A DNA stretch of 64,000 nucleotides, taken from positions 1-64,000 of the IMG/VR virus record IMGVR_UViG_3300028783_000001. One strand, written 5' to 3'. The notes under the pieces were generated by a model. That model was given only the letters and a program-made list of their open reading frames with translations. It did no database searches and had not been told where the DNA came from. Shown here one piece after another: positions 732 to 57,145 of the stretch. Numbering within the stretch: position 1 is the stretch's first letter; each line of letters begins with the position of its first letter. The position numbers and the translations under genes are program-made. The stretch comes from a virus.

Positions 732-1364
732 ATGATCACGCGTAGTGATAAGGAACAGGTCGACTTCTTGCAGACAAACATAAATAAGCTACCGCTCAAT
801 GACCGCAACTTTGCCGGATGCGTGGTCGAGGGAGCCAATGCAAAGATTCGCCGCATTGGGTTTGCCACCGAGAAGCAGCGAGCGTGCATCGACAAGCTGG
901 TTGCTCGGATTGAGACGCCAGTTCCGGTGGAGAACGAGCGCGTCAAGACTGAGGTTGGCAACCTGGCGCGTCTGCTAGAGATGTTTGACAAGGCGCAGGA
1001 TAACATCAAAAATCCCGCCATCAACATCGAGTTGGCCGGTCGCAGCATTAAGCTGACCCTCGCCAGCTCCACCGCGCCCGTTCCTGGATCGATATACGTC
1101 GTGGAGGACAACAAGTGGTGGTACGGACGCATCCTCCGCGACGGAAAGTTTGAGGCGTCACCGCGTTACCCTACACCCGATGGGTTGGTCGACTCGCTGA
1201 TCGAGTTTGCGAGTGATCCCGCAAGGATTGCCAGCGAGCATGGTCGCAAGACTGGTAACTGCTGCTTCTGCAGTCGTGACCTAACCGACAAGCGTTCGAC
1301 GTTGGTTGGGTATGGTCCCATATGCGCAACAAGGTTTGGCCTGCCGTGGGGTGAGGTCGTCTAG
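732..1364 (+). CDS. DUF6011-like zinc-binding phage protein
   Basis: C-terminal CCFCSRDLTDKRSTLVGYGPICA matches the CxxCxRxLTDxxSxxxGxGPxC pattern; AGGAG RBS. Confidence 0.75.
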   Translation: MITRSDKEQVDFLQTNINKLPLNDRNFAGCVVEGANAKIRRIGFATEKQRACIDKLVARIETPVPVENERVKTEVGNLARLLEMFDKAQDNIKNPAINIELAGRSIKLTLASSTAPVPGSIYVVEDNKWWYGRILRDGKFEASPRYPTPDGLVDSLIEFASDPARIASEHGRKTGNCCFCSRDLTDKRSTLVGYGPICATRFGLPWGEVV

Positions 1365-1374
1365 GGAGAACCAC

Positions 1375-1656
1375 ATGAAGGTCATTGCGTGCGATGAGGT
1401 AGCAAAGATCGTAAGCGAGTTGTCTGATCGTGAGATAATAACGCAGGAAATCCTCGATTATTATAACGGTGGATCCCTTCATGGAAGGAAGGTGGAAGAC
1501 GCGATAAGAGCTGCGCTTGGTGAGGTGATCTACGAAGCCGCATATAGGAGCGGTGCCGTAATTGACACTCTATATGCAAAGTACCAAGGGCAACCATCAA
1601 TCAAGATCCTCTACAAGGTGTACTCATTTGACGGCGTGCAATCCGCAATAGCGTAG
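1375..1656 (+). CDS. hypothetical protein
   Basis: GGGAG RBS before ATG 1375 (MKVIACDE). Confidence 0.55.
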   Translation: MKVIACDEVAKIVSELSDREIITQEILDYYNGGSLHGRKVEDAIRAALGEVIYEAAYRSGAVIDTLYAKYQGQPSIKILYKVYSFDGVQSAIA

Positions 1657-1660
1657 CCTC

Positions 1661-1670
1661 TGAGTAAAAT
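1661..1670 (+). promoter_or_regulatory. TGAGTAAA motif (putative phage-specific promoter); first of >=18 copies
   Basis: Exact TGAGTAAA at 1661, 5652, 8587, 9013, 15311, 32272, 36302, 36785, 37083, 38391, 41238, 44907, 47336, 49184, 53699, 57099, 57866, 59916; all on + strand, mostly at gene boundaries. Confidence 0.7.
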
Positions 1671-1713
1671 ATAAGGGAGGCGCAGGGCGCGCCTCCAACT
1701 CTGGAGAAACGTA

Positions 1714-1974
1714 ATGAGCAGTAGGCCACGTGCTGGGCGGGTCAATGGGCAGGTAACGCCGCGTAAGGGAGGCGGCTACAACGACCATCGGACTGTTGAC
1801 GAGTCGGTTTTAGTCTGCGATCCTGAGGTTGCTCGTATAGCTGCAATCCTCGTTCGCCAGACTAACAACAAACGCCTCGTGCCTTTTGTCAAGGCTGAAA
1901 AGCCTGCGCCAAAGCGGCGTCAGATGCCAAGCCTGCCACACTTCAAGTGTCTCGAAAAGCCTGTAACTACATAG
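1714..1974 (+). CDS. small basic hypothetical protein
   Basis: GGAG RBS; follows motif and hairpin. Confidence 0.55.
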   Translation: MSSRPRAGRVNGQVTPRKGGGYNDHRTVDESVLVCDPEVARIAAILVRQTNNKRLVPFVKAEKPAPKRRQMPSLPHFKCLEKPVTT

Positions 1975-2229
1975 GGGAAGCGACCATGTACCAACTTACC
2001 TCTGCCGACTACAATCGTATTAAGAGTGACGAATCTGCGTTTGCATGTGGAATGTCCCTGGAGGAGGCACGTGATTTAATCGACAACCTGCCTCATCTCT
2101 TCGACGAGTTTACGACGGCGATGGATGAGGCACAAGGTGCCGTCCATTCGAAGTCGACCGACGTTGCATACGTCGTTATTCGTATCACGCGTTGAATTCA
2201 GACCAAACTTAAATGGACAGGAGACTAGC

Positions 2230-3120
2230 ATGAAAACCAATACAAACGGAAACGTCGTCGAAATCCTGGAAGTGTCCAATGCCTCGAAGGTTAGGGCAGC
2301 GATACTGTCCGATTTTCGCGATAAGGAGTTTACGGTGCGCGACTTAATGGGTGCCGCCAGCACTCCAGAGAATGCGACGTCGGCGTTTGTGAGCCGGCTC
2401 GCCGCTCGCGGTGCCCTGGAGGTTCCGCGCCAGGTCGGCCACCGGTTCTTCTACCGCGTTGTGGACACCGCGATGATCGAGGCCATAACGTCAAAGGGTT
2501 CGCGTGTCGGCTATAGCAGCGAGCAGCCGCCGAAGCGGCGCTTCAAGCAGAGACTCGTCGCAAACAAGTCGCGCCTAACCAAGGAGCCGTTGAATCATCA
2601 CGACGGCGACACTGCACAGCGTGTCCGTGACATAATTCTTCGCGAGTTTGTCGACGCTCGGTTTACCGTGGTCGATATCGCCGACGCTCTTGGAATTATG
2701 GCTGATAAGTCGATCAAGCCGGTTGGTGCGGCGATGTCAAATCTCCTTACCTCTGGTGCCCTGGAGAAGATTGGTGAGACGAAGAATCACGCCTTCATTC
2801 TCAAGGTTGCCAACGCTGCTCTTATAAAGCAGCCAATCCCACGTCAGACTCCGGCGCGCGCGCCGCGTCTGTCGGCCGAGTTTATTGATGAACTCAACGA
2901 TAATACATATCTGGAACCGCCGAATCGTGAGTATGAGGAAACAGAGCATGCTATCGACCAATCCAAACTACGCGAGCATCTCAAGGTTGAGACTAGCGCA
3001 GCACCGTTGCTAGTCAACGAACTGATCGACCTGGCGATCTGTATTGAGCATGAGGGCATGACGCGCACGGCATGCATTACGCTGATCGAGCTTGCTGCCA
3101 AGGCGATGAAGCAGATCTAA
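2230..3120 (+). CDS. putative DNA-binding protein with two winged-helix-like repeats
   Basis: KVRAAILSDFRDKEFTVRDLM...GALE and RVRDIILREFVDARFTVVDIA...GALE; AGGAG RBS before ATG 2230. Confidence 0.6.
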   Translation: MKTNTNGNVVEILEVSNASKVRAAILSDFRDKEFTVRDLMGAASTPENATSAFVSRLAARGALEVPRQVGHRFFYRVVDTAMIEAITSKGSRVGYSSEQPPKRRFKQRLVANKSRLTKEPLNHHDGDTAQRVRDIILREFVDARFTVVDIADALGIMADKSIKPVGAAMSNLLTSGALEKIGETKNHAFILKVANAALIKQPIPRQTPARAPRLSAEFIDELNDNTYLEPPNREYEETEHAIDQSKLREHLKVETSAAPLLVNELIDLAICIEHEGMTRTACITLIELAAKAMKQI

Positions 3121-3303
3121 CGGAGGTTAAAGTGAAGCAGCCAATTAGCGATACTACGGGCCGTGGGAAGATGTCGGCGCAGGCTGCCGTCGGCTACCAC
3201 AACTACGAAGATGAGGACAGCCGCAAGACTAAATGGCGGCGTCCTCAAAAACGACCATCGAAGGTGAAGACGCTACGTCACCGATACGGAAGATAAGGGG
3301 AAC

Positions 3304-3714
3304 GTGATGGCAACGTCTAAGGCAAGAGCCGCCCGCCGTGCGGCTGTAGCGAGTGGTGATTATAGCAAGCAGTACAATAATGCAGCTAGGAGGATTGGCG
3401 CTCAAACCAAGCAGCAGTTCGATGTTGAAATTGACGCTGCCCTTCAGCGTAGCAAAGCACGGATGCAACTTCCGACGAGCTACGATCCTGAGCTGATCGG
3501 TACGTTGAATGAGCCGGTGCTAGATGACGACTATTCCGTTTACGGCTGTTACATGTATGTCGTGGATGGGCGCGTTACCTGCAGCGATGTGTTTGGTTCG
3601 GTGCGCACGCTCAAACGTTGTGAGCTTCAGAAGGGCCTTAGCGCAGACGAGGTGAGGCGTTGCGACATATACGGCCGCGCGGACCGCGACCTGCTCCAGG
3701 GCTTCAAGGTGTAA
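3304..3714 (+). CDS. hypothetical protein
   Basis: RBS AAGGGG; 136 aa. Confidence 0.55.
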   Translation: MMATSKARAARRAAVASGDYSKQYNNAARRIGAQTKQQFDVEIDAALQRSKARMQLPTSYDPELIGTLNEPVLDDDYSVYGCYMYVVDGRVTCSDVFGSVRTLKRCELQKGLSADEVRRCDIYGRADRDLLQGFKV

Positions 3715-3820
3715 GGGAACCGCGATGAGCAAAAAATCTAATAAAAGATGGCGAACCTATCGCCATCTTAGGTGGATGATCTGGATTGAGCGTCGGACCG
3801 GCAAGCGCCAATAGGGGACA

Positions 3821-4144
3821 ATGATGACAAAGGTTGAACCGGATCACATCCGCGAGGTAGAAGTGGACATGGAGAAGATACGACGTCAGCGTGAGCCCTT
3901 CAATCAAGCATGTCGCGACCTTGGTGACATTGGCTGTGGACTCAATTCTCTGGCCATCTCCTGTTATCGGGTTGGTTTGAGCGCGATGGCTGAGGAGTTG
4001 GATTTCTGTGCAAAGGATCTTCAGCGCCTCCTCAAGGCGTTTACGGATCACGACGCAAACGTCGCCAACGAGAGGTTTAAGGCGGCGCAGCAAGCTACTG
4101 GCAATATGATGTCAGTGTTGCTTCACTCAACCGCAAACAAGTAG
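3821..4144 (+). CDS. hypothetical helical protein
   Basis: RBS AGGGG; 107 aa. Confidence 0.55.
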   Translation: MMTKVEPDHIREVEVDMEKIRRQREPFNQACRDLGDIGCGLNSLAISCYRVGLSAMAEELDFCAKDLQRLLKAFTDHDANVANERFKAAQQATGNMMSVLLHSTANK

Positions 4145-4153
4145 GAGACGAAC

Positions 4154-4585
4154 ATGTGTGCTGATGTAACTGGCCCAATAGCGTCGCTTCCTGGGTCGAG
4201 CCATTGTACTCCTGAAGGAACGATGTGCGACAACCACCCTGATCGGCCCGCTACTGTTCGCATGCAGGGCGAGACTGACAGCTTTGGTTCCGAGATGCAT
4301 GACCTCTGCGCCGAGTGCACAGAGAAGGCGCGGGAGGAACCTCACTATATCGGCACGTGCGATTGGTGTTCGGCGAGCGAGGTAGTGCTCAACCCCCGTC
4401 GCGACTACGAGGAGGGAATGGCAGGCCGCGTCTATTACGTATGTCAGCCCTGTATCACCAGATCAAACGCCAGGATCGCAGCGGAGTTTGATGATGATGA
4501 TAACGGTTACGATGACGGCCCCGACTACGACTATGAAGACGAGTGGGATGAGCCGCCGGACGACCTTCCTGAGAAGGAGGGTTGA
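4154..4585 (+). CDS. Cys-rich (Zn-binding) phage protein with acidic tail
   Basis: CDNH, CAEC, CDWC, CQPC motifs; AGGAG RBS. Confidence 0.65.
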   Translation: MCADVTGPIASLPGSSHCTPEGTMCDNHPDRPATVRMQGETDSFGSEMHDLCAECTEKAREEPHYIGTCDWCSASEVVLNPRRDYEEGMAGRVYYVCQPCITRSNARIAAEFDDDDNGYDDGPDYDYEDEWDEPPDDLPEKEG

Positions 4586-4701
4586 GTGATGATCGAGCCT
4601 TGGATGTGGAGTTTTCCTCCTGATGATGGAATCGTTAGGATTCGGATGCTCAAAACGCGCAAGCCAAGCGGACCCTACTTCTTAAAGTGGAAAGGACTAA
4701 A

Positions 4702-5083
4702 CATGATCACCGGTATCGAGTTTATGGGCTTCGACTTTGTTGTAGATGTCTACTACAAGGTCACGAGCAAGGGCGGCAAGGAAACCTACTCAATATATGG
4801 GTGGGACCCTGCCGATGGACCGGAGTTTGAGATCATGGAGATTAACATGTGGCGCGACGAGCCTACCTGCCGCGCCACGTCTAAGACTCCGATGTTCGCA
4901 GCTACTGGTGAGCTATTCAACGTGCTTGCTAATCTAGCTGCGATTCGCAATGCCGTGGAGCAGGACATAATCGACGGTGGTTTAGATGACTATGACGATG
5001 ATGATTATCAGCGCCGCCGCGATGATAAAAACGACGCCGACTTGCAGCGTGGATATGCTAGTCAACGTGGCTGGGGTGAGTGA
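4702..5083 (+). CDS. hypothetical protein with acidic tail
   Basis: ORF 4586-5083; more plausible start at ATG 4702 after AAGGA. Confidence 0.5.
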
Positions 5084-5101
5084 ACCACTACTCAATGGAG
5101 A

Positions 5102-5632
5102 TTGAAAACGATGAAAATGTTTGAGCGCTACAATGGATTCCCCAAGGGAGCAATCCAAACTTCTGATGAGCTGAAATCTTTAATCGTACGGGCTATTCAA
5201 TACGACGAACAGTATGTATATGCCGTCGCCCAGCTTGGTCGTATTGAGACCTACGCAATTACATCGGATAGCAAATACACGGTCAATACCAACATTGAAA
5301 GTTCTTTATGTATAGGCCCTGCCTTCAACTCAGTCTCATGTGTTCATGTTTACGATGACGGTCATCGCCACAATTACAAGATATTGATGGGGTCATACAA
5401 CGTCGATAATACCGACGTGTGTGGTTGTGCTCATCGATTGTTTGGCAATCTGAGCGATGCTAATGCTTATAGCAATACCGTCAGAGACGACGCCGAATAC
5501 GTTGAAGCAGTTCGGCAGCACGTCGCTGACTGCGCTATTATGCACCATAGCTACGGTATGTATGACTACGAATATGATGATTACGGTGATACTGAGGCGG
5601 GAAGATTCCGACTACGAGTTGCGTGGCAATAG
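5102..5632 (+). CDS. hypothetical protein
   Basis: 176 aa ORF with GGAG RBS. Confidence 0.55.
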   Translation: MKTMKMFERYNGFPKGAIQTSDELKSLIVRAIQYDEQYVYAVAQLGRIETYAITSDSKYTVNTNIESSLCIGPAFNSVSCVHVYDDGHRHNYKILMGSYNVDNTDVCGCAHRLFGNLSDANAYSNTVRDDAEYVEAVRQHVADCAIMHHSYGMYDYEYDDYGDTEAGRFRLRVAWQ

Positions 5633-53722: not shown

Positions 53723-55705
53723 GTGACGTTCATGAAGTTTTTTACACGAGTTGGAGATGAAGACGGTGCCTACCTGCAGCACGATGATCCTGATGGGGAT
53801 TGCGTGCTGCTCGTAGTTACGTCGGGTGATAAGTCGGGTAGTCCGCTGTCAGGCTACGCCGAGGCCCTACTCACAAACGTCTTTGTCAAGACGGTTCCAA
53901 TACTGGGTGCCTGGAAGCGCATCGTTGTCGCAACTGCTGGAACTAGCATCGGTAAGCTAGTCAAGCAGCATGGAGCCGATCACATAATGCTGATGGGAAA
54001 GCAGTTTTCTCAAGTCTTAATCAAGCCGTCTGGTCTGAGACCAGAAACCAACATGCTCGGCATTCTTGTCAACCACCAAAACAGGCGCTGGATCGTCACA
54101 CCGGCGCTGTCGGTCTACGGCATTGGCAAGGAGGCCAAGGGCATCTATGCAGCGATGCTCGGACACTTGTACAGGCACCTTGAGTTGTTGCGTGTTGGTC
54201 TAATCGGTTGGAAGGACCCAGCGGCTCCGTGCGAGTGTCGTATGGTTCGCAACAGTGATGACTGGGACGAGCTTCGTGAGCTGTTGGAGACAAAGCGGCT
54301 GGTCGCGATAGATACCGAGACAAACAACCTAGAGCGCATAAACAACACAGTCTTGATGGTCCAGTTTGGCTTCGACGGTCGCACGGGGTGGGTATTGCCC
54401 GTCGACCACTCTGGATCAACACTCCCACGAGACGTGCTCGACGCCGCACTAGAGTGGCTAACCGACTACTTCGAACGTGGCCGTCCTTCCACGCACGTCT
54501 ACGTAAATGCCAAGTTTGATTTGCACCAGCTCATTTCGCTAATGAAGCTGCGTTGGTATAATCACAACGTGTTCGACGTTCAGGCAGCAGCATTCAATCT
54601 TGATGAGATGCAGCAGGGTAGGTTCCTAATCGGTTACGCCAAGAAGGAAGAGACGTGGGCACTCGGTCGGCTATGCATCGAGGCCGGCATGCCTCACTAC
54701 CAAAATACGGAGATTGGTAAGGGTGATCGTGGTAGGCTAGCAGCACTTGATATTGAACTGGTCGCGAAGTATGGCGCCGTCGACGTTGTGCTCCCGATTC
54801 GCCTCATGCGGATGCAACTGGCTCTTGCCAAGTGGAGGTCGGAGCACTTCCACGGCCACCCCTACACTAAGTTTGCGCAGGCAGTGATCCAGGTCGATGG
54901 CGTTAAGATCATTCAATTCGTGGCAATGGAGCGCAACGGGCTACTGGTCGACCGTAAGTATGTAGTATCACTACAGGGTCCAAACTCTCCAATCTTGAAA
55001 GAAATTCGCGACGCTACTGCGAAGTTTCTCAGCTTCCCAGAGATTTCCACGACAAACGCCAAGCTACTGAGCAGCCGCAACGTGAGATCGCGTTCGCTGT
55101 TTGGGGCGAAGGGCTCGCAGTCGATGGTGTTTGATCCGGGTAAGCCGGCTCATCAGCAGATGCTATTCTTCGACGTCGCGAAGCTGTCTCCGGTCAATGA
55201 GACCAAGACGGGGTTGCCCAGCATAGACGACAAGTTTAAGGCGAAGTATAAGACTACCCCACTCGTCGCAGCGTTTGCAAACCTCGATGAAGCCAAGAAG
55301 ATGCACTCGACGTTTATTGCCGGGTACTATAAGATTCTCATCGGCAATCCAGACAATAAGGATGGCTGCCTACGAACCGAGTTTGGGTACCTAAACGTGA
55401 AGACCGGCCGGTGTTCAGCCTCGTGGACTCCTTGCCTTACTAAGAAAGGTACGGTCCAGATAAAGGATATCATTCCAGGTGATGAAGTATGGACTCATAA
55501 GAATCGTTGGCGCAAGGTAACTCATGTATGGAAGAAGGGAATCCAACCAATGCTTACAATTATGATGGCTGACGGAACTACATTTACAGGAACTCCTAAT
55601 CATCGGGTTTTAGATGCTGATAGTCGATGGGTATCTCTTAAAGATGTGCAGGAAGCGTTGAACGCTGCTAAAACTTCCGAGAATTTTGGTACCCCAGAGA
55701 AGTAA
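53723..55705 (+). CDS. polA: DNA polymerase family A, N-terminal half (3'-5' exonuclease, thumb) + N-intein
   Basis: AIDTET (ExoI), NAKFD (ExoII), YGAVD (ExoIII), MERNG, KTGR followed by intein Cys1 at 55412. Confidence 0.9.
   Translation: MTFMKFFTRVGDEDGAYLQHDDPDGDCVLLVVTSGDKSGSPLSGYAEALLTNVFVKTVPILGAWKRIVVATAGTSIGKLVKQHGADHIMLMGKQFSQVLIKPSGLRPETNMLGILVNHQNRRWIVTPALSVYGIGKEAKGIYAAMLGHLYRHLELLRVGLIGWKDPAAPCECRMVRNSDDWDELRELLETKRLVAIDTETNNLERINNTVLMVQFGFDGRTGWVLPVDHSGSTLPRDVLDAALEWLTDYFERGRPSTHVYVNAKFDLHQLISLMKLRWYNHNVFDVQAAAFNLDEMQQGRFLIGYAKKEETWALGRLCIEAGMPHYQNTEIGKGDRGRLAALDIELVAKYGAVDVVLPIRLMRMQLALAKWRSEHFHGHPYTKFAQAVIQVDGVKIIQFVAMERNGLLVDRKYVVSLQGPNSPILKEIRDATAKFLSFPEISTTNAKLLSSRNVRSRSLFGAKGSQSMVFDPGKPAHQQMLFFDVAKLSPVNETKTGLPSIDDKFKAKYKTTPLVAAFANLDEAKKMHSTFIAGYYKILIGNPDNKDGCLRTEFGYLNVKTGRCSASWTPCLTKKGTVQIKDIIPGDEVWTHKNRWRKVTHVWKKGIQPMLTIMMADGTTFTGTPNHRVLDADSRWVSLKDVQEALNAAKTSENFGTPEK
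55412..55702 (+). mobile_element. split intein, N fragment (97 aa)
   Basis: Starts with Cys; IKDI.PGDEVWT; block B TPNH. Confidence 0.9.
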
Positions 55706-55786
55706 ATTACCTGCTCCCCTCCCTTAGTCGTCGGTAGTAGGGTGATAAATCTTCTACCTGTACCAATGACGTGAACAGGAGGCAAC

Positions 55787-55915
55787 ATGAAGTTAATGAC
55801 ACCCAATGGTCCGATGGAAGTTATCAGTGTGAAGCCGGCAGGTATTCACGAGGTTTTTGACATTACCGTGGACGAGGATGCGAGTTTCCTATCAGCTAAC
55901 GTGTTCTCACACAAC
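55787..55915 (+). mobile_element. split intein, C fragment (43 aa)
   Basis: VFDITV (block F), ends SHN followed by Ser+1. Confidence 0.92.
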
Positions 55916-57145
55916 TCGGGGAGCAGCAATCCAAACCTGCAGAACCAGATCAGCCGCAACAAGGTGCGGGCTAAGATTGTCAAGCGGCAGTTTGTTGCGC
56001 GCAAGGGTCGGCTGATAATCAAAGACGATTACGGGGCTCACGAGGTACGTGGTTGGGGCATCGCCTCAAACGATCCCAAGATTGGTGAGACATTTTGGAA
56101 GGGGATGCAGCTGCGCCTGCGCTACGAGGCGCAGCTAACCATTCCAGCTGTAAAGGTTGAGTGGTGGGCTAAGCAGCTGCAGGCAGCCGACGTTCATTAC
56201 CAAAATTACGGTATCATACACAAGGTCGATCCACTCACGGTAACGAAGCCACAACGAGATAGTATTAAGTCGGTGATCTTTGGTGTTACCTATGGAAAAG
56301 GTATCCCGTCGTTGGCGCGTGATATCGGTGTAGACGAAGCAGAAGCGCAGCGAATCCACAACCTGATATTCAAGAAGACATTTGCCGTTGGCGGTAGGTG
56401 GTTGGAGACGCTGCAGGAGAGCGCCCGCGAACACCTAGTGGCAAAGAACCTTCTCGGTGGAACGCGCCACCTCTGGGGTCATCTACATACCGAACGGCGC
56501 GTCCATGGTAGCGAGGATCGTAGGACGCCAAATAGCGTGATTCAGGGACCGTCATCAAACCTCGGCTTTCGTGGAAGCTACGAGACTCGCAAGTTGGCGT
56601 GGGAGATGTTTGAGAGTCGCGACATCAACCTAGACTACGCCCAGTGCAATGCAGTGCACGACTCAAACGAGAGCGAGGGTAGTATCGTAAACATACCACT
56701 ACTCGTCTACCTACGCTATCACGGTGCTACTACCATGCTGCACCGGTGGGTCCGCGACGTGTTTGATCAGACGGTCATAGTCGGTTACGAGATTGACTGC
56801 GAGATTGGCGGGTCGCTGGCTACTATGATGAAGTCGCCCAGATGGGACTCGCAGGTTGCCGCAATTAGAGCGGGCATCGAGTGGGTAAATAAGGAGCTGG
56901 GGTGGGACTTGGATGTTGAAGCCTACATGAAGATTGTGGAGCACAACGCCAAGATCATCCATGCAATCCGCCGGCGTGAGATTGTTCGACAGCTCAAGGC
57001 TGGTGAGCAGACAAACTTCTATATGGAGATGACCGCCGACAACTGCCTTTCATATGATCTTATATTCACAGCTCCTCCTGAAAAGGTTAAATCCGCAGTG
57101 AGTAAAGAACCTAGCAAGGCGCTCATGCGGGAGTTGGCGCGCTGA
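55787..57145 (+). CDS. polA: C-intein + DNA polymerase family A catalytic half
   Basis: SSNPNLQN, motif A DDYGAHEVR, motif B RDSIKSVIFGVTYG, NSVIQG, motif C VHDS; AGGAGG RBS. Confidence 0.92.
   Translation: MKLMTPNGPMEVISVKPAGIHEVFDITVDEDASFLSANVFSHNSGSSNPNLQNQISRNKVRAKIVKRQFVARKGRLIIKDDYGAHEVRGWGIASNDPKIGETFWKGMQLRLRYEAQLTIPAVKVEWWAKQLQAADVHYQNYGIIHKVDPLTVTKPQRDSIKSVIFGVTYGKGIPSLARDIGVDEAEAQRIHNLIFKKTFAVGGRWLETLQESAREHLVAKNLLGGTRHLWGHLHTERRVHGSEDRRTPNSVIQGPSSNLGFRGSYETRKLAWEMFESRDINLDYAQCNAVHDSNESEGSIVNIPLLVYLRYHGATTMLHRWVRDVFDQTVIVGYEIDCEIGGSLATMMKSPRWDSQVAAIRAGIEWVNKELGWDLDVEAYMKIVEHNAKIIHAIRRREIVRQLKAGEQTNFYMEMTADNCLSYDLIFTAPPEKVKSAVSKEPSKALMRELAR

Follow-up and report, generated by a model that had tools for sequence, protein, structure and literature searches.

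How does a DNA polymerase that is cut into two genes within its conserved primer-binding motif become one polypeptide again? This question is raised by a locus at positions 53723-57145 of a 64,000-nucleotide (nt) window of viral DNA, which covers positions 1 to 64,000 of the IMG/VR virus record IMGVR_UViG_3300028783_000001; the whole record is a 168.7-kb contig with an estimated completeness of 66%. Its source is an uncultured jumbo phage that carries a family A DNA polymerase (PolA) as two adjacent genes with matching intein halves. The original prediction, made from the letters of the window, had proposed that the two gene products are rejoined by a natural split intein. Our analysis makes it very probable that the phage polymerase does harbor a genuine naturally split class-1 intein, an arrangement that in itself is known in kind.

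The division of PolA into two genes on the same strand is borne out by the six-frame list of open reading frames (ORFs), the raw sequence, and Pfam, and the predicted lengths of the two intein halves (97 and 43 amino acids, aa) and of the gap between the genes (81 nt) were each reproduced to the base. Gene 1 (53723-55705, plus strand) starts with GTG and encodes 660 aa; an ATG at 53732 is an alternative start, as in the public gene call P0002 (657 aa). Counted from the GTG, the first 563 residues (53723..55411) form the N-extein, which spans the N-terminal domain, the 3′-5′ exonuclease and the beginning of the polymerase domain; its last residues are YLNVKTGR. Cys564, encoded by TGT at 55412, is Cys1 of the N-terminal intein half, IntN (55412..55702, plus strand), which opens with CSASWTPC, ends with GTPEK and is followed by the TAA stop codon of gene 1 (55703..55705). 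Behind the spacer (55706..55786), gene 2 (55787-57145, plus strand, 452 aa) starts with an ATG, 4 nt upstream of which lies a Shine-Dalgarno (SD) sequence (AGGAGG/GGAGG, 55778-55782). This gene opens with the 43-aa C-terminal intein half, IntC (55787..55915), containing the blocks F (EVFDITVDED) and G (VFSHN, with the Asn codon at 55913), and continues with a C-extein of 409 aa and a TGA stop codon (55916..57145). Directly after VFSHN follows SGSSNPNLQNQISR; the C-extein begins with a Ser at position +1 in SGSSNPNLQN.

Both genes lie in the same frame and are separated not only by the TAA at 55703 but also by a second in-frame stop, TGA, at 55772. In the window, long frames are closed by TGA (18), TAA (11), and TAG (9), in agreement with use of the standard code. 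Read-through or recoding of a stop codon was rejected, because two different stops stand in frame and all three are in normal use. The spacer region shows neither a promoter-like nor a terminator-like site, which is consistent with a single transcript but no proof of one. The G+C content (GC) is 43% in IntN, 43-47% in the intein DNA as a whole and 53.5% in both exteins; the lower value of the intein fits a foreign origin.

Pfam detects DNA_pol_A_exo1 (PF01612, E 3.4e-8) in gene 1 and DNA_pol_A (PF00476, E 7e-23) in gene 2, the latter from profile position 123. The motifs DYxAHExR (DYGAHEVR), RxxxKxxxFGxxYG (RDSIKSVIFGVTYG) and VHDS can be read from the translation of the C-extein, and across the two exteins the exonuclease domain and polymerase motifs A, B and C are present without internal stops. 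A megablast search of phage records was without a match. With tblastn, such records showed 30-34% identity to unsplit, single-gene PolA proteins of the jumbo phages Yoloswag, PaBG and Lu11, of Dickeya JA-type phages, and of others. In Yoloswag and PaBG, the uninterrupted motif reads VVTGR-TSAS(D/K)-P(N/S)L(Q/H)Q, with five residues between Arg and Pro. The same spacing is obtained if KTGR is joined to SGSSNPNLQN; the original reading, that splicing would restore the TGR..PNLQN motif, is supported by this agreement with the unsplit relatives.

These data also bear on the idea that the locus is a decaying, non-functional polymerase and that another enzyme replicates the phage. The record is only about 66% complete, which would allow for such an enzyme. 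Against decay stand the retained exonuclease domain and polymerase motifs, the lack of internal stops, the absence of any second PF00476 match from the 168.7-kb record, and the 52-55% identity of the exteins to those of relatives over their full length. We therefore regard decay as very unlikely.

To which inteins do the two halves belong? An exhaustive HMMER search (E <= 1e-3) with the read-through translation P0001, in which the stops were read as residues for the search only, matched 991 proteins, the best with an E value of 2e-25 to contiguous PolA inteins, so that chance similarity can be dismissed as the basis for calling the halves an intein. When IntN and IntC were mapped onto the top 150 matches, 116 of these had the PolA junction. 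Among ten matches scanned with Pfam, eight are family A polymerases, and seven of them carry a contiguous intein between profile positions ~117-123. The family consensus is TGRxS|CVAxWTP[VI] at the N-terminal and FSHN|[SC]xxPNLQN at the C-terminal junction, with TCTxxH in block B and EVYDxxVxEDxSYxxxGVFSHN at the C-terminal end. As judged from these matches, the intein of the window is a branch of a very large and apparently undescribed metagenomic PolA intein family that resides in the TGR..PNLQN motif. The splicing domain of its contiguous members is up to 52% identical to the intein of the window. A word-indexed search with IntC (residues 1-60) and scans of viral contigs with gene 2, P0122 and P0077 (the latter two described below) as queries gave no match.

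Most contiguous members (91 of 116) are ~277 aa long and contain an internal insert of ~135 aa, and 22 are mini-inteins; contiguous mini-inteins of 125-175 aa occur in the family. The insert showed no Pfam endonuclease match in six members scanned and may be an unrecognised endonuclease domain. The protein P0046, which is among the nearest relatives in local intein sequence (VWTHKNRWRRVTHTW...HEVYDITVEEDESYLSCGVFSHN), is contiguous and has a ~150-aa low-complexity linker rich in Gly, Ser, Arg and Glu, which has the appearance of an insert that decayed or underwent a frameshift.

The family also informs the assignment of the junctions. The residue at +1 is Ser in 83 members, Cys in 32 and Thr in one, and the window has Ser. 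CSASWTPC aligns residue for residue with the consensus CVAxWTPV, identifying the first Cys as Cys1; the predicted Cys1/Ser+1 pair is thus supported by both the alignment and the +1 tally. We also considered the second Cys (position 8) as the start of the intein, where CLTKKG resembles the classic CLxxxT. This candidate was rejected: with it, Arg and PNLQN would be separated by 12 residues, compared with five in unsplit relatives. Position 8 (within 55412-55435) is Val or Ile in the family and Cys in the window, and a Cys1-Cys8 disulfide that gates splicing by redox state is conceivable.

We next asked whether the two halves have retained what splicing requires. In an alignment of 27 rows (A3), consisting of mini-intein family members, split N-halves and the C-half of the related locus L007 (see below), the residues C1, T10, G13, G23, D24, H64, W73, and the block F Asp D150 are conserved to at least 90%, and all of them are present in the window. 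In addition, IntN has the Thr61 that together with His64 forms the T-x-x-H of block B (GTPNH), and IntC has the terminal His-Asn, followed by Ser+1. The conserved core of IntN ends at about residue 78, beyond which a non-conserved tail follows.

Structure prediction gave a matching picture. AlphaFold2 run on A3 modelled the read-through intein with a mean confidence score (pLDDT) of 87.5; IntN (residues 1-90) and IntC (126-168) reached 97-98, compared with 44-58 for the read-through linker. From a single sequence the score was only 43, and conclusions on the fold are drawn from the alignment-based run only. In this model, both halves are predicted to fold into one HINT domain. In a Foldseek search of the PDB, the top matches are all inteins (down to E 1.5e-9), including DnaB mini-inteins and NrdJ-1, at 12-20% sequence identity, and almost nothing but inteins was retrieved overall. 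The model agrees with gp41-1 at a TMt of 0.85-0.87 and a root-mean-square deviation (rmsd) of ~3, and with Npu DnaE at a TMt of 0.81 and an rmsd of 2.0. PDB searches by sequence only found no significant intein match (E >= 0.2), indicating that the intein is distant from every structurally characterised one. The halves carry opposite net charges, +4 for IntN and -4 for IntC (+1 and -7 in L007).

A fold retained in two complementary halves could also serve as a non-covalent clasp, through which the two polymerase chains dock via the HINT fold without ever being ligated. This proposal draws on block F, where a His common in many inteins is replaced by Ala (DASF, compared with PHNF of DnaB inteins). 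The second block F His position is variable among inteins. Neither the window nor the related loci L007 and L009 have lost Cys1, T-x-x-H, the block F Asp, the terminal His-Asn, or Ser+1, and retention of these residues would be unexpected for a pure clasp. A clasp without ligation is thus unlikely, and an apparently active split intein is the preferred reading.

The break recurs in relatives. Four of the top 150 HMMER matches end 91-114 aa after Cys1, shortly past an IntN. Two of them, P0122 and P0130, share 48-50% identity with the window over extein and IntN; P0077 and P0139 are two further possible split N-halves. P0122 was traced to its contig, L007, by a metagenome scan, and a viral-contig scan found L009, whose polymerase piece is 77% identical to P0130. 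In L007 and L009, a polymerase piece ending with an IntN is followed by an antisense ORF (419 or 494 aa) and then by a gene opening with an IntC that ends in HEVYDITVDEDESY..GVFSHN|S; the latter gene of L007 encodes 452 aa, as does gene 2. The IntN of both loci stops within a few residues of the break point of the window. Comparison of the window with L007 gave 39% identity for IntN, 56% for IntC, 55% for the N-extein, and 52% for the C-extein. Intein and exteins have thus diverged to a similar extent, which indicates that the intein travelled with the gene. One relative, L008 (981 aa), is unsplit and lacks the intein.

Could the locus nevertheless be a contiguous mini-intein that only seems broken, owing to an error in sequencing or assembly, or that acquired a nonsense mutation very recently? 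Both genes share one frame, the read-through product of 168 aa has the size of a mini-intein, and contiguous mini-inteins of 125-175 aa are known in the family. However, IntN and IntC stand on separate ORFs with two independent in-frame stops between them, and the ATG of gene 2, which opens IntC, is preceded by a good SD sequence. The read-through linker is unlike mini-intein linkers and is modelled as disordered. Moreover, the same break is found in two separate assemblies, L007 and L009, and in P0130, and the spacer resembles the end of an antisense endonuclease gene, as described below. The break is conserved in related genomes and is not an artefact; an assembly error of a contiguous intein, the objection that the original prediction had itself raised, is excluded by these observations, and a fresh mutation or artefact of any kind is barely credible.

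The relatives have further peculiarities of their own. In L007 (2-1620) and L009 (25-957), the polymerase has two or more additional breaks. Its middle piece opens, at two different upstream sites, with an IntC that belongs to a further split intein (VLTHN|T in L007, VLAHN|C in L009), and the upstream piece of L007 ends with LDEN|CFDPETIV, an IntN. These extra cuts imply polymerases made from three or more genes. The C-half of the L009 polymerase (2421-5249, 942 aa) additionally has a contiguous LAGLIDADG intein in motif C (NAVHD|CVVGDTLI...IVCHN|STECE; Intein_splicing 3.7e-13, LAGLIDADG_3 2.4e-11). On L008, a 1106-aa protein (1311-4631) contains an apparent intein, recognised by eye from its C...HSHN|S flanks.

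The antisense ORFs between the polymerase halves of L007 and L009 match DUF7487 (E 1e-25 and 3e-42) and, weakly, TnsA-like N and Hjc; by these matches they can be read as putative free-standing endonucleases of the PD-(D/E)xK type. The window has no such gene: the only ORF in its spacer region is an antisense frame of 68 codons (55600-55806). The original statement that no endonuclease intervenes is thus correct for the present state of the locus, but it misses that the spacer is probably the remnant of one. Among the six frames across 55560-55830, only this antisense frame resembles the L007 endonuclease, with a local score of 46, compared with 26 ± 4 for shuffled sequences, none of 1000 reaching 46. 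BLASTP of this antisense frame against the C-terminus of the L007 endonuclease gave an E value of 0.001. A three-sequence hhalign profile, to which a DUF7487 paralogue from the phage's own genome had been added, aligned the same C-terminal columns (P/E 0.0028). The probable relic (55657..55773, minus strand) would be what is left of an antisense homing endonuclease gene of the DUF7487/TnsA-like type, namely its 3′ end; it covers the non-conserved IntN tail and nearly the whole spacer, and its position and orientation match those of the endonuclease 3′ end in L007 and L009, which overlaps the IntN tail in both. According to a reading of the sequences by hand, the IntN tails in the sense frame differ between the window and L007 in their phase relative to the antisense frame, which argues for the endonuclease frame, rather than the intein, as the source of the similarity. 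That the spacer is the stump of a former endonuclease gene is a moderately supported reading of these alignments.

The paralogue just mentioned is a free-standing, 351-aa DUF7487 endonuclease-like gene at about 127893-128948 (minus strand) of the record. It is of the same family as the endonuclease between the polymerase halves of L007 and L009 and does not lie visibly inside a fractured gene. Two further intein matches were noted in the same genome, both on the minus strand: a strong, full-length Intein_splicing match (105137-106171, E 3.9e-21) in a 639-aa open frame, and a C-terminal-only match (156208-156339) inside a 2223-aa open frame.

Based on these observations, we propose the following model. 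One transcript probably carries both genes, each of which is translated on its own. Basic IntN and acidic IntC would then associate into one HINT domain, in which Cys1 would perform an N-S acyl shift, Ser+1 would attack the resulting thioester, and the terminal Asn would cyclise. This would join the exteins as KTGR-SGSSNPNLQN to a 972-aa polymerase with a restored primer-binding motif. The predicted Lys-C junction peptide of the ligated product is TGRSGSSNPNLQNQISRNK; trypsin would cut exactly at the R|S junction. With regard to history, a free-standing endonuclease gene of the DUF7487/TnsA-like type may have entered, in antisense orientation, an ancestral PolA intein that was contiguous or already split, an arrangement that L007 and L009 would have kept. 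In the phage of the window, this gene would have been deleted except for its last ~40 codons, so that only the spacer of 81 nt and the non-conserved tail of IntN are left. While the anatomy of the locus, its homology, the conserved catalytic residues, the fold predicted for the intein and the recurrence of the break in relatives are established here, the association of the halves, the splicing chemistry, co-transcription and the deletion history are inferred. The locus fits step III, "endonuclease lost", of the gene-breaking model of Dassa et al. 2009 (PMC2677866).

A further peculiarity concerns the exact insertion register. Two residues separate the Arg of the motif from Cys1 in 102 of the 116 family members, compared with none in the window and L007 and one in L009/P0130. 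The C-exteins compensate for this difference (SGSSN, SSSSN and SCND, instead of SxD), and the Arg-Pro spacing after splicing stays at five. Registers 0, 1, and 2 within one lineage indicate that the intein occupies three neighboring positions in a Ser-rich junction. A tentative extension, which we consider possible but clearly less likely than not to be correct in full, is that the lineage slid along the TGR..PNLQN junction and persists as an active split intein after loss of its endonuclease. If so, the insertion point of an intein would not be fixed by homing, and a split intein would have been kept by selection after homing, possibly with coupled translation of the two halves via an SD-masking hairpin. 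Hairpins upstream of the downstream gene part have been described for fractured genes (Dassa et al. 2009; PMC2677866). In the spacer of the window, a hairpin pairing CCUCC with the SD sequence GGAGG of gene 2 can be drawn (55718-55782; -23.8 kcal/mol), but it is no better than those of shuffled sequences, 18 of 200 of which fold as well (z -1.3).

Several points weigh against a spliced, formerly endonuclease-bearing intein, in addition to the Ala in block F. Splicing is deduced from sequence alone. The register directly after the Arg is unusual, and junction compatibility is not to be assumed from the family. The evidence for the relic is moderate only: hhalign with a two-sequence profile gave only an E value of 0.14, and BLASTP of the relic against the DUF7487 paralogue of the same genome produced no alignment. 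Finally, the missing third of the genome leaves room for a second polymerase.

Taken together, the hosts of natural split inteins can be extended by this locus to a jumbo phage's family A polymerase; no published split intein of a PolA or other family A polymerase was found in the literature searched. With only 12-20% identity to characterised split inteins, this candidate Cys1/Ser+1 intein could reasonably be considered for use as an orthogonal pair in protein ligation. In combination, the window and L007/L009 provide a before-and-after pair for the proposed gene-breaking pathway: the endonuclease is still present in the relatives, and its putative stump in the window.

How does this intein compare with known systems? 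The fractured genes described by Dassa et al. 2009 include gp41, IMPDH, DnaE, NrdA, NrdJ, ligase, and terminase (PMC2677866). Like gp41-1, NrdJ-1, and IMPDH-1 among these loci, that of the window is a phage replication gene cut in its intein at the endonuclease insertion point, with adjacent halves on the same strand. In contrast to them, its host is a family A polymerase, outside their eight host types, and the endonuclease of its relatives is antisense and DUF7487/TnsA-like, with a probable relic still recognisable in the window. That the endonuclease gene has disappeared from between halves that are still neighbors has a precedent in gp41-7 (PMC2677866). With gp41-1, whose IntC is acidic and whose charge polarity is opposite to that of Npu DnaE (bioRxiv 10.1101/546465), the intein shares the Cys1/Ser+1 chemistry, the combination of a basic IntN and an acidic IntC, and the closest predicted fold (TMt 0.87), but only ~15% identity in the structural alignment. 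The DnaE inteins of Npu and Ssp are likewise naturally split at the canonical site into an IntN of ~100 aa and an IntC of ~36-43 aa and have a similar predicted fold; their halves, however, are encoded at distant loci, with Cys+1 and the opposite IntC charge, whereas those of the window are adjacent, with Ser+1, at 17% identity. Contiguous DNA polymerase I inteins in bacteria were mentioned by Novikova 2016. Contiguous PolA inteins (TGRxS|SxxPNLQN) have a homologous splicing domain in the same motif and a C-extein starting at DNA_pol_A position ~123, but unlike the copy of the window they are unsplit and mostly in a different register. Split inteins are also known from PolB of phages: the jumbo phage MIJ3 has one together with an HNH gene (PMC6892783), and another occurs in PolB1 of Aes123/CP21, that of Aes123 being cysteine-less (PMC12707363); recent tool papers make use of PolB split inteins. 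As in the phage of the window, a replicative polymerase is encoded there by two genes with intein halves, and MIJ3 is a jumbo phage as well, but the polymerase family and the insertion sites are different, and MIJ3 keeps its endonuclease.

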